Numbered from the stretch's first letter, positions 32,371 to 52,606 are shown. The stretch: DNA of 57,211 nucleotides from Alphaproteobacteria bacterium (GCA_045611665.1 JAZKXP010000068.1:1-57211), one strand, 5' to 3'. Numbers and translations: made by a program. The notes: a model not told the origin generated them from the sequence alone.

Positions 32371-33951
32371 CTATCCGTTTAATTCTTTAATACATTCGTC
32401 GTACATTTCCTGAACTGCTTGTTCAAAGGAGTGTGTGAATTTTTCTGTATTAAACAAAGGAGCTTTTTCAATTTTCTTGGTGACTTTTTCGCGTAGATTT
32501 TTTAAGGCCCCCGGTGTTGTACACAGTGTTACGACTTTTTCTTCGTATTCTTGAATATTTTTACAAATCAGTTCGGGCATTTCTAAGGCACTCAACAATG
32601 CGCCTCCTACACGGCTGGGATAAGTTGTACCGGGGCAAGTAATGACCGGACATCCCATAAACAAAGCCTCCATTCCGGTTGTATGCGCATTATAAATTTC
32701 TGTATCCAACAATAAATCCGCGATTTTATAGCGTGCTAAGTGTTCATCGTGCGGCACAAATTTCGAATGGACAATACGGTCTTTTTCAATACCGCGTTTT
32801 TCAAATTCTTTATCGATATTATCTTCCAAAATTTGAGAGTTACCATAGAACCATAAAACCGCCTTTGGTACCCGTTTTAAAATTCGAGCCCATAAATCGA
32901 AATAGGTCGGTGTGAACTTATAGGTATTATTAAAACAACACAAAACGATGGTGTCTGATTTAAATCCCATGTGTTTGCGCAGAGGTTTTCCTTGCGGTAA
33001 TTCAATATTGTGATCAATTAACCAACGAGCTGGTTCCAAATACTTTAATGTTTCGTGATAGTACTTTTCTTCACCGGGCAAAATGCTGAATTTATCCACA
33101 AAGTGATAATCAATGCCCGGCACTCCGCCCATTGTTCCGATATATCCTAAAAATGTTCCTTGAGCCGGTGCCGGTTGATATGTCATAATGCCCAATCGAT
33201 TAAAGCTGGTAAAGCCATTCATATCCACCAAAACATCGATTTTGTCTTCAAAAATTCTTTCGGCGGCGGCTTTATCGTTTAACTTGTCCAGTTGGACGAT
33301 TGTCATATCCTTAATGCTATAGATGCGTTTGCTGGGATAAGAGTCTAATTCCGGATGAATATCGTACAGATACACATCAAATTTATCCCGATTCAATCGT
33401 TCAAAAAATTCCCCAATGACAAAACCGGTCGGATGAGGGCGAATATCGGCGCACAAAAAGCCCAGCTTAATTTTTTTGGGATTTCGTTTTCTGTCATCAA
33501 AAGAAAACGGACATGGTTTTAAACGCAATTCGGGCGCTTCCGATACAAAAGCCCGTAACGCTTTGTACCGTTGTTCATTGCTCAGCGGTAAGTGAGCCCC
33601 GATAAAAAACGGATTGACTTGCCCGCTGTTCAACACATCCGGACGCATAAAATAATTCGTGTCACGTTCCAAAGTATCCCAAAAAACAAAGTTTTTTTCC
33701 AATTCAAATAAACGCGACCGAATATCCATGGGCGTGTCCTCACCATATAATTCAACGATGCGGTTTAATGCCCGATAAGCATTGACTTTTTTACCCATGT
33801 ATCCATAGATTGCAGACACAGCATTTAACGCCTTTAATGTTTTTGGGGCGATTTCCAATACTTTTTGATATTCGGCCAGCGCCTCAACTAACATTCGTCG
33901 GCGCAAATAAATGCCGGCTTGTTCCATATGTTGATCAAATTTACTTGCCAT
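32371..33951 (-). CDS. GT41 protein glycosyltransferase (OGT/SPINDLY-like) with short TPR region
   Basis: TPR-like N-terminus; KLGFLCADIRPHP, DVLVDMNGFT, PAPAQGTFLGY, CFNNTYK, DTEIYNAHTTGMEALFMG.PVIT, SRVG. Confidence 0.9.
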   Translation of the reverse strand: MASKFDQHMEQAGIYLRRRMLVEALAEYQKVLEIAPKTLKALNAVSAIYGYMGKKVNAYRALNRIVELYGEDTPMDIRSRLFELEKNFVFWDTLERDTNYFMRPDVLNSGQVNPFFIGAHLPLSNEQRYKALRAFVSEAPELRLKPCPFSFDDRKRNPKKIKLGFLCADIRPHPTGFVIGEFFERLNRDKFDVYLYDIHPELDSYPSKRIYSIKDMTIVQLDKLNDKAAAERIFEDKIDVLVDMNGFTSFNRLGIMTYQPAPAQGTFLGYIGTMGGVPGIDYHFVDKFSILPGEEKYYHETLKYLEPARWLIDHNIELPQGKPLRKHMGFKSDTIVLCCFNNTYKFTPTYFDLWARILKRVPKAVLWFYGNSQILEDNIDKEFEKRGIEKDRIVHSKFVPHDEHLARYKIADLLLDTEIYNAHTTGMEALFMGCPVITCPGTTYPSRVGGALLSALEMPELICKNIQEYEEKVVTLCTTPGALKNLREKVTKKIEKAPLFNTEKFTHSFEQAVQEMYDECIKELNG

Positions 33952-33960
33952 ATTTTTCTC

Positions 33961-36378
33961 CTATTTTTTACAAACGGCGGCAATTGCTTCTTCATCTGAT
34001 TCATAATAATAGAACGAACCATAGTTACAACCACAATCGGCATATACAGTGCCATAAGGTGCATCTAATCTATGCAGTTGTTCGCCTGTACAACCATAGT
34101 TTGGTGTGTAACACATTGCGGCAATTGCTTCATCATCAGAAGAATATCTGCCCGATGCCTTTTTACAGAAACATTCTTCTTTTACAATCCATAATGAGTC
34201 ATTTGATAAAGCGCGCGCTAATTGATTGTTCGTATCCGCACAGAAATAGTCACCACCTTTTTGACATAAGGCGTCAATTGCTTGGCTATCTGATGAGAAG
34301 TAGCCTCCAGTTGTACAAGAACAAGAGCTTACATAGCTGTTACCTGGTCTGTATATGAAGTTCCCAGTAGAACAGATATAGTGTATACCACCTGTACACA
34401 TTGCTGCAATAGCTTCATCATCAGATGAATAATAGCCGCCGTTTGTGCACAGACAACTTGTTACATGCTCACCATTATTTTTGTATATGAAAGCATTTGT
34501 GGAGCAACCATAATGTTGATTTTGACACATAGCCTCGATGGCCTCTTCATTGGAATCATAATAAGTCGTTGAACCGCTACAATTACAAGTGGTAACATGA
34601 TACCATCCTCCAGTGCTGTCATAAACCTGTAGGTTGTTATTATAACATTGGTATAAAGGCCCACCTGCTTCCTCACACATCGCTGCAATGGCTTCTTCGT
34701 CTGAGCCGTAATAACCCTCCTTATTCGTATCGCATTGACAATTAATTAAATTTGTACTGTTATTTTTAACAATAAAATCACTTCCATGACCTCCATCAAA
34801 ACCAGAGCATGTATACATATCCCTGGATGTTGGTGTTACAGTTTGTGTTTGAGTCACTGTTTCGAATTGACTCATCGCTTCAATCGCTTCTTGGTCTGAG
34901 TTAAAAATTGCAGATGTTGTTGCACAGTTATATGTACCGTAGAATATGTAATAATCCTGACCCCAAGCGTCTCTGTATATACCATTTTCAGAACAAAAAT
35001 AATATGTACTTGAACACATTTGGGCAATAGCATCTTCATCGGAGGCGTAGTAAGAATCGTAGTTGTTGTTGCTACAGAAACAATTGTAATGAAAATCTTG
35101 GTTATTAGTGTCTAAACCATATATAAAACCACCTGCAGAACATGTATAATGTTTTGGAGTGTTTTGACACATTGCGGCGATGGCCTCTTCGTCGGAATCA
35201 TAATAAGCCGTTGAACCACTGACACAAGCGCAAGAGCTAACATACGCAGATTGTCCATTATTAAGTGCTTTTCTTAGTTCAGATGGATTACAATAATAGT
35301 ATGAGGGATCCTCTGGATTTGGCGTTGTAGCATCTTCCTCTTCTTCACACATTGCCGCAATAGCCTCTGCATCGGCATAGAAAACACCTGTTGATCCAGC
35401 AACAATACAATCACAAACGGTAACACCCGTCCATACAGAACCATTTAATACAAGTAGATTATCAGATGTGCATTTATATTCCATGCTAGAACACATCGCC
35501 GCAATGGCTTCTTCATCCGAGTCATAAAAACTTGTTGCACCAGAACAATTACACCACTCTCGCACCCATCCCCCATCGGTTCCCAATCCGATTCCATCTG
35601 TGTTCCCACTACAAAAATAATAAGGCCTATTCGTACACATTTCGTTAATTGCCTCTTCATCAGAATCATAATAAGCTGTTTTAGTTACACAAAAACACTC
35701 ACTATTATGATATATCGTCGGACCAATATAATCTCCCCTCTTTATTGTATGTACAGAGCAATAATACTCTCTTTCTGTACACATCGCGGCGATGGCCTCT
35801 TCGTCTGAATCGTAATAAAACTCTTCATCAGATTCGCTACAATTGCAAGTCGCTACCTTTCCCGATTTGTTTTGAATAGTACCATTCTCACACCAATAAA
35901 AGCCGCCCTCGTCAAGCGCATCCGACAAAACGTTTGTGTCAAAAATAAAGGAAATGGCATTTTCGTCATCGGAAGTACAGCTGACACTGCCCGGTGTGCA
36001 GTCGGTTCCGATAAACAATTTTAATTCGTCGATATAGTGATTATCATCGGCCATGTCTGTAAAGTTTTCACACACACCTTTGGGTAAGCCGGCCATATTA
36101 ACCGCATAACCCGATGAACACATAACGGCTGTGGCCAGATAAGAGCTGTTTAATTGATCAATGGTATCTTGTACACTGGCTAAGGTTAAGTTGTTATTTA
36201 GCAATAACGCTTGAGTCAAAACTGTCGTCCGGTTTAAAAAATCGGTAATGTCGTTGGTTCTGTGTTTGGTTATTGCGGTATTAAATCCCGCGATACCGCC
36301 AACAGACAACACGCCAATAATGGCAAGCGTTCCCAGCATTTCAATCATAGACCGACCGGTTTGTGTGTTTTTCTTCAT
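33961..36378 (-). CDS. Type IV pilin/pseudopilin-like protein with 13 tandem Cys-rich repeats (805 aa)
   Basis: AGGAG RBS before ATG 36378; class III-like leader MKKNTQTG|RSMIEMLGTLAIIGVLSVGG; repeats ending YYxSDEEAIAAMC. Confidence 0.85.
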   Translation of the reverse strand: MKKNTQTGRSMIEMLGTLAIIGVLSVGGIAGFNTAITKHRTNDITDFLNRTTVLTQALLLNNNLTLASVQDTIDQLNSSYLATAVMCSSGYAVNMAGLPKGVCENFTDMADDNHYIDELKLFIGTDCTPGSVSCTSDDENAISFIFDTNVLSDALDEGGFYWCENGTIQNKSGKVATCNCSESDEEFYYDSDEEAIAAMCTEREYYCSVHTIKRGDYIGPTIYHNSECFCVTKTAYYDSDEEAINEMCTNRPYYFCSGNTDGIGLGTDGGWVREWCNCSGATSFYDSDEEAIAAMCSSMEYKCTSDNLLVLNGSVWTGVTVCDCIVAGSTGVFYADAEAIAAMCEEEEDATTPNPEDPSYYYCNPSELRKALNNGQSAYVSSCACVSGSTAYYDSDEEAIAAMCQNTPKHYTCSAGGFIYGLDTNNQDFHYNCFCSNNNYDSYYASDEDAIAQMCSSTYYFCSENGIYRDAWGQDYYIFYGTYNCATTSAIFNSDQEAIEAMSQFETVTQTQTVTPTSRDMYTCSGFDGGHGSDFIVKNNSTNLINCQCDTNKEGYYGSDEEAIAAMCEEAGGPLYQCYNNNLQVYDSTGGWYHVTTCNCSGSTTYYDSNEEAIEAMCQNQHYGCSTNAFIYKNNGEHVTSCLCTNGGYYSSDDEAIAAMCTGGIHYICSTGNFIYRPGNSYVSSCSCTTGGYFSSDSQAIDALCQKGGDYFCADTNNQLARALSNDSLWIVKEECFCKKASGRYSSDDEAIAAMCYTPNYGCTGEQLHRLDAPYGTVYADCGCNYGSFYYYESDEEAIAAVCKK
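33964..35901 (-). repeat. 13 intragenic 41-65 aa repeats: YxC-variable-CxC-x-YYxSDEEAIAAMC
   Basis: Counted directly in the translation. Confidence 0.9.
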
Positions 36379-36423
36379 CAGCAAGCTCCTTGGTAAGGTA
36401 TAAATTTTTTTACAATCTAAGCA

Positions 36424-36581
36424 TAAACCAACGTTTAAATCAACCACTTTTTTTATAACTTTCATATTTTTCTTTTTTTACACACAAATGATTAAAATCG
36501 TAATAAAATCAAATAATTCAAGATTGATATAAAATTAGTACGTTTTTGGGTAAAATCAATGTGGGCATAAACGTTCCTTTA
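36424..36581. promoter_or_regulatory. Imperfect inverted repeats resembling Mpi recombination cores, flanking 130 bp of divergent promoter DNA
   Basis: TAAACCAACGTTTA (36424-36437) and TAAACGTTCCTTTA (36568-36581) are 12/14 complementary. Confidence 0.35.
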
Positions 36582-36617
36582 AATAAACCGTTTTTCCATA
36601 AAATTAGGAGGTTATAA

Positions 36618-37220
36618 ATGGCAATTATCGGTTATATCAGAGTTTCAACAGACAAACAAACCTGTGAACATCAAAAATATGAAATTAAACAATTCGCAAA
36701 AGCTCAAAAAGTCAAAATTACGTATTGGTTAGAAGAAACTATTTCATCCAGAAAATCTTTAGATAAAAGAAAATTAGGAAAATTACTTCAAAGTATGAAA
36801 GCCGGAGATATCCTGATTTCTTGTGAAATATCTCGTCTGGGGCGTTCTATGTTGGAAGTGATGCGGATATTGGAAACTTGTTTAAACAAAGAATGTCAAG
36901 TATGGACAATCAAGGAAAATTTCAGATTGGGAGCGGATATCAGTTCGAAAGTCATGGCTTTTGCTTTTGGTATATCAGCCGAAATCGAACGCAGTTTAAT
37001 ATCTCAACGCACAAAATCATCACTGGCAAATATAAAAGCCAGCGGTAAAAAGCTCGGTCGGCCATTTTCCGCAACCAGTAAGAAGTTGAAACTGTCCAAA
37101 AATACAAAACGGGTCAAAAAGTTGTTAGATAAAGGCCTCTCAAAGGCTCAAATCGCCAGAATTATGGAGGTCGAACGCACAACTTTACGACGTTTTATGT
37201 TCAGACAGGGGTGGTGTTAA
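36618..37220 (+). CDS. mpi: Serine recombinase, Mpi (multiple promoter invertase) family
   Basis: GYIRVSTDKQT, W.EETIS, SRLGRS, KECQVWTIKENFRLG.DI.SKV.AFAFG.SAEIERSLISQRTK, LGRP, C-terminal HTH; matches the Bacteroides Mpi pattern as recalled. Confidence 0.8.
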   Translation: MAIIGYIRVSTDKQTCEHQKYEIKQFAKAQKVKITYWLEETISSRKSLDKRKLGKLLQSMKAGDILISCEISRLGRSMLEVMRILETCLNKECQVWTIKENFRLGADISSKVMAFAFGISAEIERSLISQRTKSSLANIKASGKKLGRPFSATSKKLKLSKNTKRVKKLLDKGLSKAQIARIMEVERTTLRRFMFRQGWC

Positions 37221-37268
37221 GTGAGCCATTGTCTTAAAACAGGCAAAACGGGCCGAGCTATTAGTTTT

Positions 37269-38591
37269 CTAGTCATTCTCATGCACTAAAATAACATGAT
37301 GACCAGAGGCGGAGATTTTTTCCGCCAGCATTTGGGCTTTACTGATACACTCTTCCGACGTGATACCGAAAATGAGTTTAAGATCATCTAAATTAATCAC
37401 AATCGGAGTAATACAAAATAATGAACTCACGCGTTTTAAATCCTCACCGGATTTGACCCAATGAATACTGCCTAAAGGTATATTTGTCGTAGTTGTTTGT
37501 CCGTTTCCGGTAAAGACAAGGCACCCAATCGTTTTTTTTGAAAGACCGTCAATTAATATGCCAAAGCCATTCGATTTTATGTCTTCTATATTGTTAAAGA
37601 AAATAGGTTCGTTTAACTCTAAAATATGTTCAGACATTTTGTTCACTCGAACAATATTCGTTCCGTGTTTTAACCACATTTCCTGTGTCGGAGCATCAAA
37701 CCATATTGTTTTGTGCTTAATAATATGAGAGGAAATCAGCGGGATATTTGAAATGCAAAAACCGGTCCCAATATCGATATTTTCTTTTATTTGCACACAT
37801 CCGTATGACACAATATCCGAAACCGTTATTTTTAAATGGTTGGGATACACCGTGTAAACGGAGCCTTTTTCCGGTTCGGTTGTCGTCAGTATTTTACCAT
37901 AATAATATCGTTTGTCTTGGTGTAATCGAGCCGAAGAAATGTGCATAATCATATGTTGTTCTATCTTTTTTTCCGACAGTGATATTTTGGCATTTTCAAC
38001 TAATACAGACAAAACTTTATCAATATTATATCCGGTAACGGCAGAAACCGGAATAATCGTATAATCAAAAGTATAATGCGCCAATAATTCTTGAACTTGA
38101 TGCGTTAAATCCTCTATTTTTTGTAAGGCTCGAACGACATCCGATAAAATTAAATCACATTTTGTCAAACAGACACAAATTCTTTTTAATTGAAATAAAG
38201 AGCAAATGCGAATATGTTCCTTTGTTTGTTCCGAAATCCCTTTTTGACAATCAATAACAACGATTGCCATATCTGTTTCAGCCGCTGCAATCGCCATATT
38301 TTTTGTATATTGTACATGGCCGGGGCAATCCAATATATGAAAACGAATGTCCGAATAATCAAAATACCGATGAGCTACATCAATGGTGATTTGTTGTTGT
38401 CTTTCTTCTATTAACCCATCCAAAAGAGCAGACAATTCTAATCTGTTCTCTCCCGTTTGTTTGGAAAAACGTTCGGCTTCTTCTAACTGATCTTTTTTGA
38501 CGTTACCAGTGTCTAATAATAAACGTCCGATTAGTGTGGACTTACCGTCATCTACATTTCCACAACAAATGAATTTAAAAATTCCGTCCAT
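37269..38591 (-). CDS. cysN: Sulfate adenylyltransferase subunit 1 with a short degenerate C-terminal (CysC-like) tail
   Basis: CGNVDDGKSTLIGRLL, ERQQQITIDVAHRYF, DCPGH.QYT.NM, TKCD, PVSA..G.NI. Confidence 0.88.
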   Translation of the reverse strand: MDGIFKFICCGNVDDGKSTLIGRLLLDTGNVKKDQLEEAERFSKQTGENRLELSALLDGLIEERQQQITIDVAHRYFDYSDIRFHILDCPGHVQYTKNMAIAAAETDMAIVVIDCQKGISEQTKEHIRICSLFQLKRICVCLTKCDLILSDVVRALQKIEDLTHQVQELLAHYTFDYTIIPVSAVTGYNIDKVLSVLVENAKISLSEKKIEQHMIMHISSARLHQDKRYYYGKILTTTEPEKGSVYTVYPNHLKITVSDIVSYGCVQIKENIDIGTGFCISNIPLISSHIIKHKTIWFDAPTQEMWLKHGTNIVRVNKMSEHILELNEPIFFNNIEDIKSNGFGILIDGLSKKTIGCLVFTGNGQTTTTNIPLGSIHWVKSGEDLKRVSSLFCITPIVINLDDLKLIFGITSEECISKAQMLAEKISASGHHVILVHEND

Positions 38592-39451
38592 TAAAAATAC
38601 CCATCCTTTTTCTTTTTTTCCATAGCCCCTTCTGTATCGTAATCAATGGCACGTGTAATACGTTCGGTGTACTCGGCTTTTTTTAATTCAGCGATAATAT
38701 CATCAACCGTTGTGGCATCTGACATAACTGCTCCCGTCAACGGATAGCACCCCAGCGTTCTGAAACGAACCATTTTTAACTCGCCGGTGTTGTCCTGAGT
38801 CGCAATATATAACCCGTTTTGAGATTGAGTCAGCCGCCTTTTTTTTGCAAAATACAGCGGAACCACTTCAATATTTTCTTTTTTTATATATTCCCAGATA
38901 TCCAATTCTGTCCAATTGGACAGCGGGAATACTCTCAAACTGGTCGTATCTGTATAAAACGGATTGTACAAAGGGGGTATTTCGGCATTTTGACTTCTGG
39001 GATCCCATTTGTGGTACTCGTTTCTGACCGATACCATTCGTTCTTTGGCTCGAGATTTTTCTTCGTCTCGTCTGGCCCCACCAAATGCGATTTTAATATC
39101 ATATTTTTCAATGGCATTTTTCAACGCTTGCGTTTTCATGATGTCCGTATATCTGCTGCCATCCGTAAATGGATTTAATTTGTCCGGATGTTGATATACC
39201 AACAAATTGATTTCTTTAGCAATTTTGTCCCGAAATTCGTACATTTCCTTAAATTTCCAACCCGTATCAATATGCAAAAAACGGATGGGAACAGGGAATG
39301 GATAAAATGCTTTTTTAAACAAATGTAACAAAACGGATGAATCTTTACCGATACTGTAAAAACAAACTATTTTGGAACAATCGTTTTTAAAACAAATATC
39401 CCGAATTAATTCTATGGCTTCGTGTTCTAATTGGTCTAAGTGCCCGCTCAT
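38591..39451 (-). CDS. cysD: Sulfate adenylyltransferase subunit 2
   Basis: YSIGKDSSV, HIDTGWKF, GGARRDEEKSRAKER, RFRTLGCYPLTGA, MEKKKKDGYF. Confidence 0.97.
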   Translation of the reverse strand: MSGHLDQLEHEAIELIRDICFKNDCSKIVCFYSIGKDSSVLLHLFKKAFYPFPVPIRFLHIDTGWKFKEMYEFRDKIAKEINLLVYQHPDKLNPFTDGSRYTDIMKTQALKNAIEKYDIKIAFGGARRDEEKSRAKERMVSVRNEYHKWDPRSQNAEIPPLYNPFYTDTTSLRVFPLSNWTELDIWEYIKKENIEVVPLYFAKKRRLTQSQNGLYIATQDNTGELKMVRFRTLGCYPLTGAVMSDATTVDDIIAELKKAEYTERITRAIDYDTEGAMEKKKKDGYF

Positions 39452-40971
39452 TTGACATCCTTTGTATTTTTCGGATAAAAACTAAATTCATCAGATGAAT
39501 ATCCCCATGCTGTTCCGCCACGATAAATAACAGCATGAAACAGCTCTTGATGCGTATCAAAATCATATCTGATTAAATCAGCGTACGCCATATTGGATTG
39601 ATTTTTATCAAACACCTGAGAAATAAAAACCGTTACATCATTTTGTTCGGCATTGTAAGATACAGAGGATCCGGTATCTGAACGTACGCCCAAAGGTTGT
39701 ATCCAATATTGTTGTACCGTCCGTTTTTTACCATCTACCTTGAATAAGGAGGCATAAGAGTCATCTGTTGTAAAAACCGTTTTGTCATGTATCGGTCCGG
39801 AATTATCAAATAATCCAAAAACACCATCTTCAAATACTTTTGCATTATGATTTTTGGTCGGCCATTTAAAAGCAGAAATGGCTTTTTCACCTTGCTGAAC
39901 GGCACGATCATACGCACGCCCTTTGGCATTCACAGCCGTTAATACTTTATGGTGAATATCGGGACCTTGTCCTTGCCGGCCGGATACTTCAAATCCTTTG
40001 TTAGGTGTAATCATCCATACGAGTTCCTTTGTTTTTTCATCCACTTTAATCATTCCCGAATGACGGCAAGATACAACGATACCACCATCTGTTTTGTCAT
40101 AATCAATGCCATTGATATGACACCAATCATTCATGCCATAATCAACGTGTCCTTTTTCAACAATAACAGAACGATTTGGGTTTAATAATTCGGCTAAATC
40201 TATTTTATTAAGTACTTCCCCCGTTTGATAATCAATTTCAAGAATCCAATCACGATGCGTTTTTTGTTGTTTGCCATCAACCAACACAACACTACCCGCA
40301 AATGACCCGATGACTAAAAAATTTTTGTTTGTTTTTTGTCCCATACCATGAGTAAACGAAGAAAAGCCTTTAGGGTATTTGTAATATTGCAATAACTTTC
40401 CGGCCGGAGAATATCTATAGATACCACGATTGCGATATTCTACAATTACCTCATGATTAAACCAATAACATAAACCACCGCCTTTTGCCTGAAAAGAAAA
40501 TCTCATCCATCCGTTTTCATCGAATACCATTCCGTCAGATAGCCAATGATATCTGGTTTGTGTGTCGTTTTTTTGCGTTACAACGAATAAGTTTCGTTTT
40601 TGAACCTTAGGCACGGAAATAATTGTTGTACTTTTTTCGGTTTTATTTGGATAAATCGCCGTTAAGACAACGGTGTTTTTATAATTGGGATATAACCCTA
40701 AAACCTCAATACTATGCTGTGTTGTTTCCTCTGAACCGGTATATGAAATATCTTGCGCTCCTTCACGCCCTTTAACTGTCACCTGAATCTTAGCCGGTGC
40801 AAGAGTTTCAAAATGAACCAAGGCTGCTAATTCATTATTGCCATATGGATTTAACCGAACATTAAAACCATTTAATGTTTTAATTTCGGCTGTTTTTTCT
40901 GAAGGATAGATAAAATATCCCACAACAAAACAGAATAAAAAAACAGTAAGTCCGGTTAAAATATTTTTCAT
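39448..40971 (-). CDS. Exported arylsulfotransferase (ASST family)
   Basis: N-terminal TM; Ig-like LNPYG..LAALV/VLGLYP domain; FTHG, DWCHINGIDY..VSCRH, NHNA and FDN motifs. Confidence 0.88.
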   Translation of the reverse strand: MKNILTGLTVFLFCFVVGYFIYPSEKTAEIKTLNGFNVRLNPYGNNELAALVHFETLAPAKIQVTVKGREGAQDISYTGSEETTQHSIEVLGLYPNYKNTVVLTAIYPNKTEKSTTIISVPKVQKRNLFVVTQKNDTQTRYHWLSDGMVFDENGWMRFSFQAKGGGLCYWFNHEVIVEYRNRGIYRYSPAGKLLQYYKYPKGFSSFTHGMGQKTNKNFLVIGSFAGSVVLVDGKQQKTHRDWILEIDYQTGEVLNKIDLAELLNPNRSVIVEKGHVDYGMNDWCHINGIDYDKTDGGIVVSCRHSGMIKVDEKTKELVWMITPNKGFEVSGRQGQGPDIHHKVLTAVNAKGRAYDRAVQQGEKAISAFKWPTKNHNAKVFEDGVFGLFDNSGPIHDKTVFTTDDSYASLFKVDGKKRTVQQYWIQPLGVRSDTGSSVSYNAEQNDVTVFISQVFDKNQSNMAYADLIRYDFDTHQELFHAVIYRGGTAWGYSSDEFSFYPKNTKDVK

Positions 40972-40974
40972 TTT

Positions 40975-41571
40975 TTAGTCCTTTTTAATGCATAATGCCT
41001 GTAGTGTTTTAAAGTTTTGTTTTGAGGTTTCATAAACAGTACCATCATTAATGTCTGCATAGTAAGCCGCTACCTTATCTTTTGACTCTAACCAAAAGAA
41101 ACCTCTGGATCCGAAAGCATCTTGTAAAGCAATTATTGTCTCGGTGTCCAAACAGGCCGGTCCGATACCGTCACACATGAAATCAGAACGTGTCGCTTGG
41201 CGATACTTTTTTCCTAAAGCACTACAAAAATTTGTGGCAGATTGATAATTTAACAACATTTCCGATAAAACGAATTCTGACGCATTAATTTGTATCGGCG
41301 TGTGTTTTGTTGCTGAGGCGCAAGCCCCTTCTGTGTCCGATTGCACACAAAAATATCCTTTTTTGCAATTTTTATTAACAGAACAGGCCCCGTCTGTATG
41401 AATATCACAATATCTGCCCGTATAAATCGTTGGATTATCGCAAATACATGCTCCAATCCAGGGTGCGCCATATCCGTTTTTACAAAAATCCGTATCTAAC
41501 ATGTCAAGAGAAAATGCAGGCAAGGCGTGCAAAACAAAAAAATAAAAAATAAATGCAATGTGTTTCTTCAT
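40975..41571 (-). CDS. Secreted EGF-like + CLec-like Cys-rich protein
   Basis: Signal peptide MKKHIAF; CICD..YTGRYC EGF-like motif; C-terminus homologous by eye to ORF1 (FFWLE...AYYADINDG.VY...QALC). Confidence 0.7.
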   Translation of the reverse strand: MKKHIAFIFYFFVLHALPAFSLDMLDTDFCKNGYGAPWIGACICDNPTIYTGRYCDIHTDGACSVNKNCKKGYFCVQSDTEGACASATKHTPIQINASEFVLSEMLLNYQSATNFCSALGKKYRQATRSDFMCDGIGPACLDTETIIALQDAFGSRGFFWLESKDKVAAYYADINDGTVYETSKQNFKTLQALCIKKD

Positions 41572-41681
41572 AATTAAAATAAAATACAAAAAAATAAACT
41601 TAATTGAGATTGTTTTTTTTGTAATACCATATTATCTTATTTATTTCAACCTTCTTTTATAAAAGACCAGTAACCTTTATC

Positions 41682-42410
41682 CTATAAAAATAAGTTTAAT
41701 AAGTTGATTGAAATAACAACCAGTGCTACAGCAAACATTAACTGCTTTGCTTTCATTTTACAACATCCGTATGCTGATAATGGAGAAGCCATAATCCCGC
41801 CGATAATGAGGCCTAAAATGATTTTCCAATGGTATACACCAATTAACGAAAAAAACATTATAGATTGAGCGGCCGTTACAAAAAATTCCGCAATATTGGC
41901 CGTTCCAATAACATATTTAGGGGAATTACCCCGAGCAATTAATGTGGTGTTAACAATAGGGCCCCAACCTCCACCGCCTAAAGCATCCAAAAATCCCCCG
42001 CAAAAACCCAAAAACGGTATAGATTTAGGGTGTCGAGGTTGTTTTTTAGGGCGCCATATCAATACCAAAATTCGAACGCCTAAAATCAATAAGTATATTG
42101 CAACCAAACTTTTTAGCAACTCTGAATTAAATGAGCATAAAAAATAAGCGCCGATAATCCCGCCGATAACCCCAGGGATAGCCAACTTCTTTAACAATGT
42201 TATATCGGCATTTTTAAATTTTATATGAGCAATTCCAGAGGCGCATGTTGTAAATATTTCACTAAAATGCACACTGGCGCTGGCTGCGGGTAATGGAATA
42301 CCCATTGTAATCAGTGTACTGGTGGAAAAAACGCCATACGCCATTCCTAAACATCCGTCTATCAGTTGGGCCACGAAACCTATGCCGATAAAAAATAATA
42401 AGTCTTCCAT
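41682..42410 (-). CDS. TauE/SafE (TSUP) sulfur-compound transporter
   Basis: AQLIDGCLGMAYGV, ASASVHFSE, DALGGGGWGP, GTANIAEFFV. Confidence 0.92.
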   Translation of the reverse strand: MEDLLFFIGIGFVAQLIDGCLGMAYGVFSTSTLITMGIPLPAASASVHFSEIFTTCASGIAHIKFKNADITLLKKLAIPGVIGGIIGAYFLCSFNSELLKSLVAIYLLILGVRILVLIWRPKKQPRHPKSIPFLGFCGGFLDALGGGGWGPIVNTTLIARGNSPKYVIGTANIAEFFVTAAQSIMFFSLIGVYHWKIILGLIIGGIMASPLSAYGCCKMKAKQLMFAVALVVISINLLNLFL

Positions 42411-42412
42411 AA

Positions 42413-42988
42413 TTAGCCTAAATAACTAACACCTAAACCGATAAGAGCCGATAAAATCAACAGTGCCATCATCGGAAATTGGCACCGATATAAAAAAATA
42501 GTCAGTATGCAAATATACAATTGTGGATAATTGACCATATTTTTTAATATATCAAACGAAGTTAAGCTTGCTAAAGGGCGAGAAAAAACGGAAATGTTTG
42601 CAAACAAAATAACGGCATACGCCAACATAACCAAAGAGGCATACTTGGCTCCTTTAAAAAATCCACGTACACACCACGTGTCTTTATGTCGACTGATTAT
42701 ATTTAAACTAAAACTTGCCAAAATAAATGTCGGTAAAACCAATCCGATACTACAGATAATGGCCCCTAAAACACCGTTTTTAACATAGCCGACATAGGTG
42801 GCCGTATTAATACTGACCGCCCCCGGTGTCATTTGAGATATCGCCAATAAATTACCGAATTCATAAGGCGTAAAAACAGACCCGAGCTCGACATAATCAT
42901 GAAACAACATCGGAATAATCATATACCCGCCACCAAAACACAATATGCCGTATTTTATAAATTGAAAAAGTAACAGCGTATTAAGCAT
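42413..42988 (-). CDS. chrA: Short-chain chromate/sulfate transporter (CHR family), second subunit
   Basis: FGGGY, AISQMTPG, NTATYVG. Confidence 0.9.
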   Translation of the reverse strand: MLNTLLLFQFIKYGILCFGGGYMIIPMLFHDYVELGSVFTPYEFGNLLAISQMTPGAVSINTATYVGYVKNGVLGAIICSIGLVLPTFILASFSLNIISRHKDTWCVRGFFKGAKYASLVMLAYAVILFANISVFSRPLASLTSFDILKNMVNYPQLYICILTIFLYRCQFPMMALLILSALIGLGVSYLG

Positions 42989-43538
42989 GGTTTTGACCTT
43001 TTTTTACTTTATGAACTTGTGCGTAAATCGTCATCACACACCCTACGATAATCCCGGTGGCAATAATCCACAAGATGTGCAATCCTAAAATGAGTCCCAC
43101 CCCAAGACACCCGACAATAACAACGTCTAACCAATGTTTAAACACTTGTTTACCTAAACGAGAGGTCATACAAATAAACACACCGACAACACATGCACGA
43201 ATATACGAAAAAGCCTCTAATAAATGGGGATTATCCAAGGAATTAAGTGGGAAAAAGGCGGCTATTAAACTCAAAATAAGAATGGATGGAATTAAAACGC
43301 CTAAAACAGCGACCAAGGCCCCCTTTAATCCGGCCAATTTTGTGCCCACAAAAATAGCGCAGTTAACGGCAATCAGTCCGGGGATGGTTTGAGAAACAGC
43401 CAACATATCCAAAATATCTTGTTCCTTTAACAACTTGTGCTTTTTTACAAAAATGTCCTCTATGGCCGGAATCATAGCCAATCCCCCACCAATAACAAAT
43501 AGTGCAATTTTAAAAAAAGAAAAAAATATTAATAGCAA
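42981..43538 (-). CDS. chrA: Short-chain chromate/sulfate transporter (CHR family), first subunit
   Basis: FFKIALFVIGGG, SQTIPG, N.AIFVG; the start is approximate. Confidence 0.9.
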   Translation of the reverse strand: MLLIFFSFFKIALFVIGGGLAMIPAIEDIFVKKHKLLKEQDILDMLAVSQTIPGLIAVNCAIFVGTKLAGLKGALVAVLGVLIPSILILSLIAAFFPLNSLDNPHLLEAFSYIRACVVGVFICMTSRLGKQVFKHWLDVVIVGCLGVGLILGLHILWIIATGIIVGCVMTIYAQVHKVKKGQNHA

Positions 43539-43886
43539 TAGACGGCCCTTTCAAATAGTCAAAAAACAGAAAAAAGGATTAATGGGGTCCTTTTTTAATT
43601 CTTTAAGTATTCCTCTTTTGTATATTAAAACACGCTTGAGTTGTCAATAAAAACCACATAGGGGGCGGCTCTTTTATTGGCGGGCTGTGATATATGGACG
43701 AAACGATGGTATTTTGCCGTAACGAAAGCTCTATAACAACAAAGGTATAAATTTTGTTGGCAAACATCAATGTTGTTTAATCCCCAAAATCATTCAATAG
43801 ATTATTTCTTTTCTCCTTGTTTTTTTATTGTATATTTTTTATACTATGTTATATTGAAATATCGTTTAAGATAAGAGGTATTGACC

Positions 43887-46800
43887 ATGAAAAAAATATT
43901 TTGTTTTCTTGTTTGTATGATGATTAATTTGTCTGTCGATGCACAATGGTTTCCGTATATTCGTGTGCCGGATAAACAAAAACAAATGGAGTTGCAAGAT
44001 TTAACTATTGACGTTCAAATTATGGGTAATATTGCAACAACCACTTATGATATGGTTTTCTTTAATCCTAACAACAAAATATTAGAAGGGGAAATGATTT
44101 TTCCCATGACACAAAATCAAACCGTTGTGGCTATGGCATTGGATATCAATGGGAAAATGCGAGGTGCATCTGCGGTTGATAAGGATGAAGCCCGTCGCAT
44201 TTTTGAAAAACAAGTACGACGAAACATTGACCCTGCTTTAATTGAAAAAGTATCCGGTAATCAATATAAAATGCGCATTTATCCTTTTAACCCTAAGGGA
44301 ACGCGTCGTATTCAAATTACAACTGAAGACAGTTTAATTGTTAAAAATAATGAAATGTCCTTATCTATTCCTTTAACATACAATAAGAAAATCAATCATT
44401 TTGGTGTTAAGGTGAACGTGGTGCAGGATGGCTCTGAGATGCCAAAAGTAAAAACGGATTTGGAAAATTTTACCTTTACTCAAAAAAATCAACACTTAAC
44501 AGCGTCCTTTGAAAAACAAGATTATTTGCTTAATAATTCATTGGAATTTACATTTCCGGCCCCAAAAACAGAGATTGTTTATACGGGGGATGAGGCAGGT
44601 AAAAATTATTTTTATTCCAATATCAATGTTAAAAAATCTCAAAAAAGAAAAGGGTTACCTAAAAAAATAGCTGTTGTTTGGGATATTTCTTTTTCCGGTG
44701 AAACGCGCGATTTGAAAAAGGAAAAAGAAGTGTTAATCGGTTATTTGAAGAAAATTAAAAACATAGATGTTGATTTGATTGCTTTTAATATTAAGCAGAA
44801 CAAAAAATCTTCCTTTAAAATTCAACAGGGCAATACAACGGCTTTATTGCAGGCCATTAATGCATTGGTTTATGATGGAGGAACCCGTTTGGATAAAGTG
44901 GATTTGTCCGCCATTAAAGCAGATGAAATTTTGTTGTTCACGGATGGTGTTGCAACAATCGGAGATAGTGTGATTAAACCGATTAGAACGCCGGTTTATG
45001 TCATTACATCATCAGATAAAAGTGAATTTTCAATGTTATCCAATATGGCCAATAAAACATTGGCTCGTTTAATTAATTTGACAACGACTTCTGTGGAAGA
45101 AGCGTTAAAACAATTAACACATAAACCGTTACGTTTAATCGGTTATAAAACAACATCCGCCAAAGAGATTTATCCCTTGCCTTCTGCGGTTGTTGGCGAA
45201 GATTTTACTTTTACAGGTCTCTATGATGGTAAATCGGCCGAAATTGAATTGCAATTCGGTTATGATACCCAAAACATTACAGAGCGGAAAACGATTAAGG
45301 TTGGAGCAAATCAAAAAAACACTCTGGTTCCAAGGCAGTGGGCCTCCCATAAAGCGCGTGAGTTGGAATTAGATGCTAAAAATAATCGGGCGGCCATTGT
45401 GCAATTAGGTAAAGATTTTTCAATTTTAACAGAATATACTTCTTTATTGGTATTGGATAGTTTAAATGATTATTTGACCTATAAAGTGGCGCCGAAAGAT
45501 GCCGATTTATTGGAAAAATATAATCGCCATGTCTCCTTTAAGAAACAAAAAAGTAAGTATGCGGAACTCAAAGAAAAGCGGCGAGCACTTGTTGATACCT
45601 TACGTATGGTGAATCAAGTTAAAAAATGGTGGGAAAAGGACTTTATGCCAGAACCACCCGAAGCGCCTGATGAACCATGGGGTTTTGCTAAAAATCCGGA
45701 AGATTTGGATAAACAATATGGGGTTATTGTAGATCAAGAAGAAAGAATGTATGGTATAAGTCCTACTGGTACAGGGATACATGATATGGCTGTCAATGTC
45801 ATTGGAAGAGTGGTATCTGATAAGGATGAGATTTTATTAGATGCTCAAGAAAGTGAAAAGCCACAAAAAGAAGCTAAAATCAAATTGAAAGAATGGTCGC
45901 CTAATACACCCTATATTAAGGAGTTGCGTAAAGTAAAAAATGCTGATTTATATCGTGTGTATTTGGTGCAAAAGAAAAAGTATCGGGATATGCCGGCTTT
46001 TTATTTCGATGTGGCGGAAGAATTTGCAAAACGAAATATGACCGAACAAGCAACTTTGATTTTAACTAATTTGTTGGAAATGAAAACGGATAATGTAGAA
46101 TTATTGCGTGTAACCGCTCATAAATTGCAAGCTTACAAACACTATCAAATAGCTGAGTTCTTATTCAAAAAAATCATTGAAATGTATTCAGAAGAACCGC
46201 AAGGATATCGTGATTTAGCTAAATTATATGAAGCCTCAAATCAAAATCAAAAAGCATTAGAACAATATCTATTTATTCTGACTAAAAAATGGAGTGATTT
46301 TAATGAGATTAAAAAAGAAGTGTTTGTTGATATGAATGGGTTGATTGCACGGGATAAGTCGCTTAATACCCGTGATATCAATTCGAACCTGATTTTCAAT
46401 ATGCCACTTGATTTGCGTATAACTTTAGGGTGGAGTGCCAGAGATAAAAGCGTTGGTTTGGATGTATTTGATCCTTATCATCAAAATGCATATCGTGGTG
46501 AAAACGACAATGGAGCCAAACACATATATTCCGGTTGGGGCTGGGGTCCTGAAAGCTATATGATTAAAAAAGCTATCGAAGGAAACTACAAAATCAGGGC
46601 CTATGATTATCATGGTGATAGTCGTCAAGGAGTGGTTTTGCCGGTTTTTGCTTGGATTGATGTCTATACCCATTTCGGACAAAAAAATCAAAAACAGGAA
46701 CGTATGTTGATTCGTATGGATGAAATTAAAAATCAAGAGATGGGAAGTGTTGATTTTAAAACAAAAAGTTGTTCAAAAGAAACGCCCATTTGGTATATAG

Positions 46801-48821
46801 ATACTTGTACCTCTTGTGATGATACACGCAAATTGTTTGTATCTAAAAAACAATGCGATTTATGTCCCGGTAGAAAAATGTTTGGTGATTTTTGTATCCA
46901 AACGTGCACAGCGGATAAACCAATGCAAAGCTCTGTTGGAAATTGTTATGAATGTAATAATAACAAGGCTCTGAAATTATCTGAGGAAGAATGTAAAAAA
47001 TGTCCAAATCGTGAAATGAAGTTCGGCTATTGTGTTTTAAATAATTATACTTGCCCTGACGATAAACCGCTTCGTGAAGGGGTTGTGACCTGTCAATCTT
47101 GCGATTATGAAAAATCTATGATTGTGTCGCCTGAAGATTGTGTCAAATGTCCGAACCGTGAAATGATTGGCAAGTTCTGCGCTTTAAAACAATGTCCTGC
47201 CGATAAACCGTTGCAAGGGAAAAACGGTATGTGTTATCGTTATGATTGCGATGCAGTATCTGCAGATATTATTAATCCCGATGATTGTGCTAAGTGTCCG
47301 AACCGAAAAATGCAGGGAAAATATTGTATCAGAAAATCCTGTTCTCCAAAGAATCCGATTGAAGGTAAAAATGGTGAATGTTACGCCTGTGATGCTATAT
47401 TCTCTGTCACAACTGAAAAAACAGAATGTGACAAGTGTTCGAATAGAACATTATTCGGTAATCAGTGTAAATTAAATTGTTCGGGTAATAGACCGCTTCA
47501 AGACAAAACAGGGGACTGTTATTCTTGTGATGAAGATATCTCTGTGGAAACAACAAAGGAACAGTGTGCAATATGTCCAAATCGTGAATTTAACGAAGGA
47601 AAATGTGTTAAAAAAACTTGTTTCAGTGATAAGGATATTGAAGGGAAAGACGGTCGTTGTTATTCTTGTGATTACAAAGGGAGTGTTCATACATATAAGG
47701 AAGAATGTGCAAAATGTTCTAATCGTTATATGATGAAAGAATATTGTATAAAATCATGTGAAAAGGAAAATCAAATCCAAGATACAAATGGCCGGTGTTA
47801 TGATTGCGATACAAGACGTTCTATCGATGTAGATGAAAAAACATGTAAAAAATGTCCAAATCGTGTCTATAAAGATAATTTGTGTGTTATCCCCTGTCCA
47901 AAAGACAGACCTATCAGGGATAAATGGGGAGAGTGTCATACGTGTGATGATGAAGATAGCATTCAAACAGATGCAATGGAATGCAAAAAATGTTCTAACC
48001 GTACGCAATTTGGTGAATATTGTAAAATGGCCTGTGATAAGTATGAACCAATGCAACGCGTTGAAGGTGATGGGCATTGTTATGATTGTGATGCTGAAGG
48101 TGGCTTAAGTATTCCGCAAGAAGAATGTAATAAGTGTCCAAATCGTGAAATGGTGAATGATTTGTGTTTTGAAAAGTGTCCGGATTATGCCCCATTGGTC
48201 GATGAAGAAGGTACCTGTTATACGTGTGATATGGATGAACATATTACACGTCGGGATTCATATATCCGGGCAGTGACGGAGTCTGTCGGGTATCACATAG
48301 GATCTGGTATTTCAATGCAAGCGGTTAAAACAAGTAAAGAAAATTGCTTAAAATGTCCTAATCGAATTTATCGGGATGGATATTGTATTAATAAAGCTCC
48401 TCAAGGTATTTTTATGGCGGATCTGAAAAGAGGACAATACTATGCCTGTTCGCTTGAAAGATCTTTAGACATTCCAAAAGAAGAATGCGATAAATGTTCT
48501 AATCGTGTCATGATAGGAAATGTTTGTGTTGTTAAGGATTGTCCTGAAAATACACCCATTCGATTATCAGAAGGGGAATGTTCTTCTTGCGAAAATGATA
48601 CAATGTTATCCGTTTCAAAAGAACAATGTGATAGATGTCCGAATAGAATGATGCAGGGGCCCTTTTGCACATTAAAGGAATGCCCGACAGATACCCCAAT
48701 GATTGGAAATAATGGTCGGTGTATCAGTTGCCAAACAGATATCTTATTGTCCATTTCACCAAAGGAATGTGCTAAATGTCCGAACCGTGAAATAAAGGGT
48801 AATTATTGTGTTTTGAAGTAG
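43887..48821 (+). CDS. Secreted VIT + vWA-like + TPR + DUF2135-like protein with 14 C-terminal 6-Cys repeats
   Basis: Signal peptide; F.NPN.KILEGE..FP and RRNIDPALIE (VIT); VWDIS.S...FTDG (vWA-like); DLRITLGW..GWGPESY (DUF2135-like); GAGG RBS before ATG 43887. Confidence 0.82.
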   Translation: MKKIFCFLVCMMINLSVDAQWFPYIRVPDKQKQMELQDLTIDVQIMGNIATTTYDMVFFNPNNKILEGEMIFPMTQNQTVVAMALDINGKMRGASAVDKDEARRIFEKQVRRNIDPALIEKVSGNQYKMRIYPFNPKGTRRIQITTEDSLIVKNNEMSLSIPLTYNKKINHFGVKVNVVQDGSEMPKVKTDLENFTFTQKNQHLTASFEKQDYLLNNSLEFTFPAPKTEIVYTGDEAGKNYFYSNINVKKSQKRKGLPKKIAVVWDISFSGETRDLKKEKEVLIGYLKKIKNIDVDLIAFNIKQNKKSSFKIQQGNTTALLQAINALVYDGGTRLDKVDLSAIKADEILLFTDGVATIGDSVIKPIRTPVYVITSSDKSEFSMLSNMANKTLARLINLTTTSVEEALKQLTHKPLRLIGYKTTSAKEIYPLPSAVVGEDFTFTGLYDGKSAEIELQFGYDTQNITERKTIKVGANQKNTLVPRQWASHKARELELDAKNNRAAIVQLGKDFSILTEYTSLLVLDSLNDYLTYKVAPKDADLLEKYNRHVSFKKQKSKYAELKEKRRALVDTLRMVNQVKKWWEKDFMPEPPEAPDEPWGFAKNPEDLDKQYGVIVDQEERMYGISPTGTGIHDMAVNVIGRVVSDKDEILLDAQESEKPQKEAKIKLKEWSPNTPYIKELRKVKNADLYRVYLVQKKKYRDMPAFYFDVAEEFAKRNMTEQATLILTNLLEMKTDNVELLRVTAHKLQAYKHYQIAEFLFKKIIEMYSEEPQGYRDLAKLYEASNQNQKALEQYLFILTKKWSDFNEIKKEVFVDMNGLIARDKSLNTRDINSNLIFNMPLDLRITLGWSARDKSVGLDVFDPYHQNAYRGENDNGAKHIYSGWGWGPESYMIKKAIEGNYKIRAYDYHGDSRQGVVLPVFAWIDVYTHFGQKNQKQERMLIRMDEIKNQEMGSVDFKTKSCSKETPIWYIDTCTSCDDTRKLFVSKKQCDLCPGRKMFGDFCIQTCTADKPMQSSVGNCYECNNNKALKLSEEECKKCPNREMKFGYCVLNNYTCPDDKPLREGVVTCQSCDYEKSMIVSPEDCVKCPNREMIGKFCALKQCPADKPLQGKNGMCYRYDCDAVSADIINPDDCAKCPNRKMQGKYCIRKSCSPKNPIEGKNGECYACDAIFSVTTEKTECDKCSNRTLFGNQCKLNCSGNRPLQDKTGDCYSCDEDISVETTKEQCAICPNREFNEGKCVKKTCFSDKDIEGKDGRCYSCDYKGSVHTYKEECAKCSNRYMMKEYCIKSCEKENQIQDTNGRCYDCDTRRSIDVDEKTCKKCPNRVYKDNLCVIPCPKDRPIRDKWGECHTCDDEDSIQTDAMECKKCSNRTQFGEYCKMACDKYEPMQRVEGDGHCYDCDAEGGLSIPQEECNKCPNREMVNDLCFEKCPDYAPLVDEEGTCYTCDMDEHITRRDSYIRAVTESVGYHIGSGISMQAVKTSKENCLKCPNRIYRDGYCINKAPQGIFMADLKRGQYYACSLERSLDIPKEECDKCSNRVMIGNVCVVKDCPENTPIRLSEGECSSCENDTMLSVSKEQCDRCPNRMMQGPFCTLKECPTDTPMIGNNGRCISCQTDILLSISPKECAKCPNREIKGNYCVLK
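46770..48818 (+). repeat. 14 tandem ~46-aa Cys repeats (C..DKP....G.C..C...........C.KC.NR......C), furin-like spacing
   Basis: Counted in the translation. Confidence 0.88.
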
Positions 48822-51951: not shown

Positions 51952-52047
51952 GCGTAGTGGCTGGAGAAGTCTGGTAATACACGGAATGATTTTAATATTG
52001 AAACCATTTAAAAATAATGCTAAAGTTTAACACAAAGGAGTTTAAAA

Positions 52048-52476
52048 ATGGCATATGAAGTAAAAAAAGTTTCTGTTGTTTGTGTTATTGAAAAAGATGG
52101 AAAGTATCTTTTTTTAAAAAGAAGCAACACGGGAAAAGGTGATGGTTTTTATATGTTGCCAGGAGGACATGTGGAAGCAGGGGAATCTGTTTTGCATGCT
52201 GCAGTTAGAGAGTTAAAAGAAGAATTGGGAATTGATGTAAAAGAATCTGATTTAGAGTTTAAGCTTGTTGAACCAATTAAAACATATATCACATTTTTCT
52301 TTCGTGTTAAAAAATTTGATGGGATACTTCAAAATATGGAACCAGAAAAACATGGAGAAATGGTTTATTTGCCTATAGATGCGAAAGACATTCATCCTTT
52401 TTCCAAGCGGGAGTTAGAGTTAATAAAAAATGGTGTTTCTTTTTTGCCAAATGATGATGTGGATTTATCATCTTAA
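52048..52476 (+). CDS. Nudix hydrolase
   Basis: Nudix box PGGHVEAGESVLHAAVRELKEELGI. Confidence 0.95.
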   Translation: MAYEVKKVSVVCVIEKDGKYLFLKRSNTGKGDGFYMLPGGHVEAGESVLHAAVRELKEELGIDVKESDLEFKLVEPIKTYITFFFRVKKFDGILQNMEPEKHGEMVYLPIDAKDIHPFSKRELELIKNGVSFLPNDDVDLSS

Positions 52477-52547
52477 ATGCATTATGCTTGCTTATTAAAG
52501 GAATAACATATTCTGTTTGTTACTCAAATTCCCTTAGTTTAGTCAAC

Positions 52548-52571: not shown

Positions 52572-52606
52572 CTTTTATTGGCTGGAGAAGTTTGGTAATA
52601 CACGGA

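Follow-up and report, generated by a model that had tools for sequence, protein, structure and literature searches.

Which of the neighbouring genes between positions 32371 and 43538 of a 57,211-nt stretch of DNA from an Alphaproteobacteria bacterium work together? This whole stretch, called the window throughout, belongs to a metagenome-assembled genome (MAG) of an uncultured gut alphaproteobacterium. The part studied here had initially been annotated as a single linked system, i.e., a pilin-like adhesin that is switched by a DNA invertase of the Mpi family, glycosylated by an enzyme of the GT41 family and sulfated on tyrosines by an arylsulfate sulfotransferase (ASST) fed by cysDN, tauE and chrA, together yielding a host-mimicking, phase-variable appendage. 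With gene labels based on Pfam and NCBIfam, we arrive at a different reading that we hold with moderate confidence: the region would comprise a phase-variable operon of the pilin-like gene and the GT41 gene beside an independent sulfur-handling operon.

The layout of the genes is the first line of evidence. All ten open reading frames (ORFs) of the initial annotation appear in the ORF listing of the window at exactly the positions given there, and eight of the ten gene labels are backed by Pfam and NCBIfam; of the two weaker ones, the label "CLec" finds no family at all and the label "pilin" is carried by partial lines only. Judged by strand and spacing, these genes form two predicted transcription units and not one system. 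The first consists of the invertase gene (plus strand) facing the pilin-like gene and the GT41 gene (both minus strand), while the second runs on the minus strand from two chrA genes through tauE, a secreted Cys-rich protein (the former "CLec"), ASST and cysD to cysN. All junctions from chrA to cysN overlap or measure no more than 3 bases, except for 92 bases between tauE and the 204-aa ORF of the secreted protein, and cysN converges with the invertase gene, their stop codons lying 48 bases apart. The sulfur genes would therefore be a separate unit outside the invertible element, and the single linked system proposed earlier dissolves into two. The features are the following:

42981-43538, minus strand: first half-size chrA gene (PF02417, E = 5.7e-38)
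42413-42988, minus strand: second half-size chrA gene (PF02417, E = 2.7e-34)
41682-42410, minus strand: tauE/TSUP permease (PF01925, E = 2e-38)
40975-41589, minus strand: secreted Cys-rich protein of 198-204 aa ("CLec"), without a Pfam or NCBIfam family
39448-40971, minus strand: ASST (PF05935, E = 1e-44; PF17425, E = 2.5e-17)
38591-39451, minus strand: cysD (TIGR02039, E = 1.7e-109)
37269-38591, minus strand: cysN, 440 aa (TIGR02034, E = 2.5e-58)
36618-37220, plus strand: Mpi-family serine DNA invertase, 200 aa (PF00239, HTH_7, NF009949)
36568-36581, no strand: invertase-proximal candidate recombination site TAAACGTTCCTTTA, central TT
36438-36567, no strand: putative invertible segment of 130 bp between the two candidate sites
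36424-36437, no strand: pilin-proximal candidate recombination site TAAACCAACGTTTA, central AA
33961-36378, minus strand (ORF listed to 36465): pilin-like repeat protein, 805 aa, with partial support as a pilin
32371-33951, minus strand: GT41 glycosyltransferase of the OGT/SPINDLY type (PF13844, E = 4.3e-71)

The invertase carries a recombinase catalytic domain over residues 3-145 (PF00239, E = 1.5e-32) in which the motif YIRVSTDKQ with the N-terminal active-site serine can be read, followed by a C-terminal HTH_7 domain (E = 6.6e-5). Its best NCBIfam match is the Mpi family NF009949 (E = 1e-80, 270.3 bits against a cutoff of 272), with the next family at 44 bits. The cluster of proteins that share 90% identity with it holds 166 members, and 2 of the 40 that we read carry the NCBI name of the Mpi family. 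At the same identity level the GT41 cluster holds 8 members and the ASST cluster 3, and by this measure the recombinase stands out among these MAGs for its conservation or its spread.

Between the start codons of the pilin-like gene and the invertase gene lie two quasi-palindromes of 14 bp each, 144 bp apart and with opposite central dinucleotides (AA and TT), the nearer one 45 bases from the pilin ATG. For serine invertases of the Hin type, such opposite central dinucleotides give the sites inverted polarity. Both sites match the core ARACGTTCGT at 9 of 10 bases, the pilin-proximal one as its reverse complement AAACGTTGGT and the invertase-proximal one as AAACGTTCCT. The published repeats of the Bacteroides fragilis Mpi system (ARACGTTCGTN) and the B. 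intestinalis repeat GTTCGTTTAA, as given in PMC8375218, are contained within the sites found here. In the mechanism that we propose, the Mpi-family invertase would act on 36424-36437 and 36568-36581 and thereby flip the 130-bp segment between them.

Similar sites accompany pilin-like genes elsewhere. Our neighbourhood sample comprised 78 loci chosen by N-terminal peptide patterns and matching at most 197 residues of the query, i.e., the N-terminus only. A site pattern made from the window and a single locus (L069) also matched two further loci (L008 and L029). In L069, a pilin-like gene and the gene of an invertase with 59% identity point away from each other, and two sites lie there 124 bp apart. 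L008 has both sites with the same cores as in the window, and its pilin-proximal site is near-identical together with about 50 inner bases; no invertase match was found across this ca. 20-kb locus. In L029, two divergent pilin-like genes enclose an inverted repeat that is perfect over 14 bp (TAAACGTTCGTTTA), its copies 132 bp apart; this repeat matches ARACGTTCGT exactly, and here, too, the ca. 20-kb locus gave no invertase match. The two small divergent genes of L029 (5501-6890) share the 132-bp segment; a single flip could swap their expression, and the same locus holds a third pilin-like gene of 528 aa (7696-9282).

A symmetric version of the pattern, applied to 1,142,540 bases (the 78 loci plus the window), returned 23 single sites and four opposite-core pairs 124-144 bp apart, and all four pairs sit 67-151 bases from an outward-reading pilin-like N-terminal motif; across 30 block-shuffles we obtained 5-19 single sites and one pair in total. 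The same 14-bp sites could also be operators or chance palindromes in a divergent promoter region, with the invertase acting elsewhere or being inactive and expression being constitutive or conventionally controlled. Such an explanation gains from the AT-rich composition of the sites within AT-rich intergenic DNA and from the flanks of the two window sites, which are also alike as direct repeats (GCATAAAC...TTTAAAT). Three points weigh directly against inversion, namely that the final symmetric pattern was composed after the eight sites were known, that two matches in the window alone are not unusual (23 of 100 shuffles reached this number), and that no other orientation of the segment was seen, the same end facing a pilin-like gene in 4/4 loci; the last two also favour operators or chance palindromes. 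Nevertheless, operators or chance palindromes would have to account for the combination of opposite central dinucleotides, narrow spacing and pilin-adjacent position in all four pairs, for the fit to the published Mpi consensus, for an Mpi-family invertase adjoining the sites in two of the four loci and for the perfect inverted repeat of L029, and we consider this explanation unlikely.

How inversion might control transcription is suggested by the end of the segment that faces the pilin-like gene, where 4/4 loci show an A-tract and then TTGAYT within the segment, directly next to the pilin-proximal site. On the minus strand of the window, the A-tract and TTGATT lie at 36443-36438, and a candidate -10 element (TAGATT, 36419-36414) follows 18 bases further on, outside the segment. 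We infer a split promoter whose -35 end would be carried by the invertible DNA while its -10 element would stay in place; the promoter-bearing end of the segment would then read into the pilin-like gene and the coupled GT41 gene. Taken together, the Mpi-type inverted sites upstream of the pilin-like gene and at three other loci lift invertase control above the mere adjacency on which it had first been proposed, and we regard inverton control of the pilin-like gene as likely on these in silico grounds.

Switched to the ON state, the segment would drive expression of an 805-aa protein resembling type IVb pilins, whose 13 disulfide-rich repeats would fold outside the cytoplasm. Its start is best placed at the ATG at 36378 because the database copy P0005 begins there and AAGGAG precedes this codon. 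The N-terminus reads TG followed by RSMIEMLGTLAIIGVLSVGG, with glycine at -1 and glutamate at +5 as in a prepilin-like class III signal, and in the longer form TG followed by RSMIEMLGTLAIIGVLSVGGIAGF these residues are succeeded by a hydrophobic helix, as expected of such signals, in which it spans about 20 residues. Its neighbours in the Atlas carry PilS, N_methyl or Bundlin at scores of 0.90-0.91, and its sequence relatives also bear PilS, Bundlin or N_methyl. A model of the whole protein places a helix at residues 11-61 ahead of strands, at low confidence (mean predicted local distance difference test, pLDDT, of 50). The pilin assignment thus combines several partial lines, and display on a pilus-type structure would follow from it.

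Behind the class-III-like signal and hydrophobic helix lie a head domain of ca. 160 aa and 13 repeats of 43-65 aa following the pattern Y-x-C ... C-x-C ... YY-x-S-D-E-E-A-I-A-A-M-C. The tyrosine-rich acidic repeats reported at the outset are thus real, their units ending in ...YY(D/S)SDEEAIAAMC, and the protein contains 63 Tyr and 54 Cys per 806 residues (7.8% Tyr), with no tandem repeat found in its gene at the DNA level. A model of a single repeat (pLDDT 67) shows four short strands and a helix over D-E-A-I-A-A-M, for which Foldseek against the PDB returned no match at E <= 0.001, and Pfam offers no credible family for the repeats at E <= 10. A profile of the repeat unit matched six proteins among 1.84 billion representative proteins, one of which (P0198) was rejected as a repeat protein, having Big_2-like repeats that match profile positions 41-57 only. 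This leaves a module with neither a Pfam family nor a structural match and with very few relatives. A word-based search found seven proteins, including P0006 (897 aa, 39% identity, from an Alphaproteobacteria MAG) and the more distant P0009, and every full-length member of this family opens with the pilin-like N-terminus.

The N-terminus itself is far more widespread than the repeats. A genome scan with the motif GRSM[VI]E[MT]LG matched at least 626 stretches, at least 610 of which were confirmed, and by this count the motif marks a very large predicted protein family in alphaproteobacterial MAGs from gut and rumen. Within the neighbourhood sample, 75 of 78 loci contain 109 motif-bearing ORFs (median 220 aa) dispersed among housekeeping genes, and the second most widespread ORF cluster is found in seven loci. 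One member, P0010 (479 aa), fuses the pilin-like N-terminus to Cys-rich modules. Family members also occur in records titled Ruminococcus gnavus, Bacteroidaceae, Lactobacillales or Lachnospiraceae (L024, L027, L028, L054, L057 and L068), which are probably mis-binned contigs.

The GT41 gene is tied closely to the pilin-like gene. Its ATG lies 9 bases past the pilin stop codon, inside TAGGAGAAAAATATG, an arrangement that by sequence couples its translational start to the end of the pilin-like frame. The enzyme (PF13844, 240 bits) appears to have a short N-terminus of tetratricopeptide repeats (TPRs), for which a single weak TPR_2 match was obtained (20.7 bits against a cutoff of 27), with TPR families carried by homologues of equal length. 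Among the 19 PDB sequences that it matched at E <= 1e-5, the closest are human O-GlcNAc transferase (OGT; E = 3.9e-64), the Xanthomonas enzyme XcOGT (E = 3e-54) and SPINDLY of plants, and none is a chain of the HMW1C kind. An alignment with human OGT shows that FNxxYK, EH and NxHTTGM, which bind the UDP-sugar in OGT, are kept, as expected for a catalytic domain of this type. No signal peptide was found on the protein, a predicted cytoplasmic enzyme.

In a second MAG, the repeat protein P0006 (MBR5130595.1, IKV03_05165) and the GT41 protein P0217 (MBR5130596.1, IKV03_05170) are encoded by consecutive genes on one contig of 438,511 bp. P0217 is 90% identical to the GT41 of the window while its neighbour P0006 reaches 39% with the pilin-like protein of the window, a divergence that fits a fast-evolving exposed protein, as expected for a surface under selection, next to a conserved modifier. 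Glycosylation of the repeat protein is plausible because the two genes are coupled, because they are consecutive in the second MAG and because the UDP-sugar-binding motifs align with human OGT; in such a scheme, the cytoplasmic OGT-type enzyme would modify Ser/Thr residues of the repeat protein before export, as happens for some adhesins. We put this forward tentatively, at somewhat below even chances. Three GT41 homologues at 48-50% identity (P0033, P0035 and P0036) carry an additional GT8 or polysaccharide pyruvyl-transferase domain in the same chain, which hints that in some relatives the glycan may be extended or pyruvylated.

Alternatively, the GT41 enzyme could be a general O-glycosyltransferase with many cytoplasmic or envelope targets, for which the repeat protein is no substrate and merely shares a transcript or neighbourhood. 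Alphaproteobacterial MAGs commonly encode GT41 relatives with the 526-aa architecture, in contrast to the very rare repeat protein; the enzyme stays 90% conserved where the adjoining pilin is 39% identical, some homologues are fused to the additional transferase domains just mentioned, and a multi-target bacterial GT41 has been reported for Yersinia (PMC11329713). A general enzyme would leave unexplained, however, the translational coupling of its start to the pilin stop and the persistence of the adjacency in one other genome with readable context; moreover, GT41 enzymes with TPRs act on proteins, and adhesin/GT41 gene pairs are described in PMC3012730 and PMC3983070. A general role without the repeat protein as substrate therefore strikes us as rather unlikely.

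Beyond the three points raised against inversion above, several observations weigh against a phase-variable pilin-like/GT41 operon as a whole. The invertase falls 1.7 bits short of the NCBIfam Mpi cutoff, and a promoter scan of the window's segment gave no complete sigma-70 match. On the side of the pilin, Pfam N_methyl (PF07963) stays below its cutoff of 21.2 (14.4 bits, E = 0.028), the structure models are weak (pLDDT 50 for the whole protein, 67 for a single repeat), and genes for prepilin peptidase or pilus assembly were found neither in the window nor as recurrent neighbours in the 78 loci. As to GT41, the adjacency in the second MAG could be plain synteny between close relatives, and the 20 clusters of GT41 relatives at 48-89% identity (P0017-P0036) lie far above the number of repeat proteins. 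Finally, a GT41 gene occurs near a pilin-like gene in one of the 78 loci (L016), where it is 28% identical and convergent. This paralogue, facing a small pilin-like gene and standing beside ATP-synthase-like genes as judged from ORF starts, was dropped as support.

The second unit opens with tauE and the two chrA halves and closes with cysD and cysN, which together form an ATP sulfurylase making adenosine 5'-phosphosulfate (APS). The 440-aa CysN contains no APS-kinase domain, and among the 34 window ORFs scanned with Pfam neither an APS kinase nor a sulfotransferase dependent on 3'-phosphoadenosine 5'-phosphosulfate (PAPS) was found at the E-value limits used. Between these ends lies the ASST, in which PF05935 and PF17425 correspond to the beta-propeller and the N-terminal Ig-like domain of such enzymes. 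It resembles the E. coli structure 3elq (E = 4.2e-28) and conserves the histidine aligned with His436, the residue that forms sulfohistidine in the E. coli enzyme according to PMC13426309. An N-terminal membrane anchor or signal probably makes it periplasmic, and it should therefore meet exported proteins. Three bases upstream of its gene ends the 204-aa ORF once labelled "CLec", whose product has a signal peptide and many cysteines. Pfam (E <= 10) and NCBIfam returned no credible family for it, leaving as sole pointer a neighbouring cluster in the Atlas that carries PF07603 Lcl_C (score 0.83). This protein weakly resembles the C-terminus of the pilin-fused P0010 (E = 0.013); modules of its type may also be displayed on pilin-like scaffolds.

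Relatives of the ASST fall into 49 clusters, of which 42 share at least 42% identity with it, and a 71% identical ASST cluster and a member of a CysD cluster each list a contig of 100,451 bp, which hints that ASST and cysD travel together. The neighbourhoods of pilin-like genes are different. At 0/78 loci each were tauE, chrA, cysD or the 204-aa protein found nearby, and ASST was found near a pilin-like gene at one of the 78, without cysDN there; a tblastn query with the repeats only matched 0/78 loci. A second ASST-like ORF of 208 aa is encoded elsewhere in the window (3292-3918, plus strand; PF05935, E = 4.4e-17; PF14269, E = 1.1e-16), covers the middle of the model and may be a fragment or a short paralogue.

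Could the ASST still sulfate the tyrosines of the pilin-like repeats, as originally proposed for the full system? Its gene lies within 3.1 kb of the pilin-like gene, both proteins should be extracytoplasmic as judged by the anchor or signal of the one and the Cys-rich repeats of the other, the catalytic histidine is conserved and 7.8% of the residues of the repeat protein are tyrosine. A supply of sulfate through a preceding enzyme also has a counterpart in the two-step sulfation of caprazamycin biosynthesis, where the ASST-type enzyme Cpz4 is reported to be fed by another sulfation step. Bacterial arylsulfotransferases furthermore sulfate tyrosine-containing peptides and proteins in vitro according to PMC13426309, which describes their natural acceptors as mostly unknown.

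The same source states that these enzymes take sulfate from aryl sulfates and not from PAPS or APS; since ASSTs are PAPS-independent, cysDN cannot supply the ASST directly. The sulfur genes, moreover, appear to form an operon of their own that is outside the control of the invertible element. The acidic tyrosine context that had drawn attention to the repeats is a criterion for enzymes of the TPST/RaxST type and not for ASSTs, and the machinery that goes with that type, i.e., a PAPS-dependent sulfotransferase and an APS kinase, is what the 34 scanned window ORFs lack. In models of low to moderate confidence, the predicted helix of each repeat begins at S-D-E-E. The acidity also fades among relatives: over the six positions preceding A-I, acidic residues average 3.1 in the window, 3.2 in P0006, 2.5 in P0007, 2.3 in P0008 and 1.5 in P0009, while the aromatic residue at -12 is retained across relatives including P0009. 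The 49 ASST clusters far outnumber the six matches to the repeat profile, and none of them lists a contig as long as the 438,511-bp one with P0006 and its GT41 gene; the ASST would therefore not lie on that contig, though this pair could sit at its end.

Sulfation of the pilin by the ASST is thus topologically and chemically possible but not supported, and we consider it very unlikely; the full system of the initial annotation, with the sulfur genes feeding the ASST, appears just as improbable. We would give equally little credence to its most far-reaching form, in which the periplasmic ASST would use aryl sulfates of the host or its diet to modify exposed tyrosines of a glycosylated, phase-variable pilin-like adhesin while an Mpi-type master invertase toggles members of a pilin-like family hundreds strong in gut Alphaproteobacteria, among them divergent pairs with a single invertible promoter end between them. 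If true, an ASST would for the first time have a protein as its natural substrate, and bacterial sulfotyrosine would have a new route of synthesis. We favour an independently transcribed sulfur-handling operon whose acceptors would more likely be small phenols or the enzyme's own secreted partner than the pilin. Little is known of the acceptors that bacterial ASSTs use in the cell; the locus offers two testable candidates, with the evidence not favouring the pilin.

Some features of the window lie apart from both units. The plus-strand gene at 43881-48821 runs divergently from the chrA genes at the head of the sulfur operon and encodes a protein of 1646 aa with DUF2135 and, at its N-terminus, a VIT domain; the internal repeats of this protein match similar proteins in three of the sampled loci (L014, L061 and L065). 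A 564-aa ankyrin-repeat protein, i.e., a eukaryote-like domain type in a gut alphaproteobacterium, is encoded at 21011-22705 (plus strand). The stretch 52000-55000 has a G+C content of 27% compared to 35-44% elsewhere, carries genes for a DUF3137 protein and a 158-aa ORF without a family as well as the start of a gene similar to SNF2/ResIII helicases, and may be foreign DNA. Rfam found three tRNAs and no other family in the window.

The system can be compared with several that are well known. RaxX/RaxST of Xanthomonas oryzae is the one well-studied case of bacterial protein tyrosine sulfation (PMC4892823, PMC6637879). RaxST is a PAPS-dependent, TPST-like cytoplasmic enzyme that acts on a small peptide, unlike the PAPS-independent, probably periplasmic ASST of the window. 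The RaxX/RaxST system depends on the sulfate activation genes raxPQ, which are of the cysDN type; none of its defining parts was found here, and no APS kinase turned up in the window. E. coli AssT (PDB 3elq) shares the Pfam families, the equivalent of His436 and a signal for periplasmic location with the ASST of the window. The similarity amounts to just E = 4.2e-28, however, and the neighbours differ, being cysDN, the TSUP permease, the ChrA halves and the secreted Cys-rich protein here and dsbL/dsbI in E. coli.

For the pairing of the pilin-like gene with GT41, the closest precedent is HMW1/HMW1C of Haemophilus influenzae, where the gene of a large secreted adhesin has as its neighbour the gene of a GT41 enzyme by which the adhesin is modified in the cytoplasm, ahead of export (PMC3012730, PMC3983070). 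In both cases, the gene of a large adhesin-like protein adjoins that of a cytoplasmic GT41. They differ in that the GT41 of the window most resembles the TPR-bearing O-GlcNAc transferase/SPINDLY type, that export would be of the pilin type rather than by two-partner secretion and that the repeat protein holds only 13 N-x-S/T sequons, which are not conserved across its repeats.

DNA inversion that selects a type IV pilin or pilin-tip variant is familiar from Moraxella Piv (tfpQ/tfpI) and the R64 shufflon (PilV). The single putative invertible segment between the two divergent pilin-like genes of L029 is reminiscent of these systems. Piv (DEDD-type) and Rci (a tyrosine recombinase) invert coding segments, whereas in the window the recombinase would be a serine invertase and the DNA that it flips a promoter segment without coding sequence.

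Of the known systems, the invertible promoters of B. fragilis and their master invertase Mpi come closest to the first unit. Several differences stand out: the host is a gut alphaproteobacterium and not a member of the Bacteroidales, and so belongs to another phylum, the targets would be pilin-like proteins and not capsule loci, the segment measures 130 bp compared to 183-186 bp reported for B. intestinalis (PMC8375218), the -35 element may lie inside the segment and the -10 element outside, and inversion is a prediction from sequence. What they have in common is a recombinase of the same NCBIfam family (E = 1e-80), the site core (ARACGTTCGTN and GTTCGTTTAA) and a short promoter segment flanked by inverted repeats upstream of genes for surface structures. 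Even the sites of L008 and L029, with no invertase match in ca. 20 kb, are as would be seen with a trans-acting master invertase such as that described in PMC4747536. Invertons of the Mpi type, and the phase variation that they bring about, are characteristic of gut Bacteroidales, and the presence of the same recombinase family and site core in uncultured gut Alphaproteobacteria suggests a shared or transferred strategy of surface variation in the gut.

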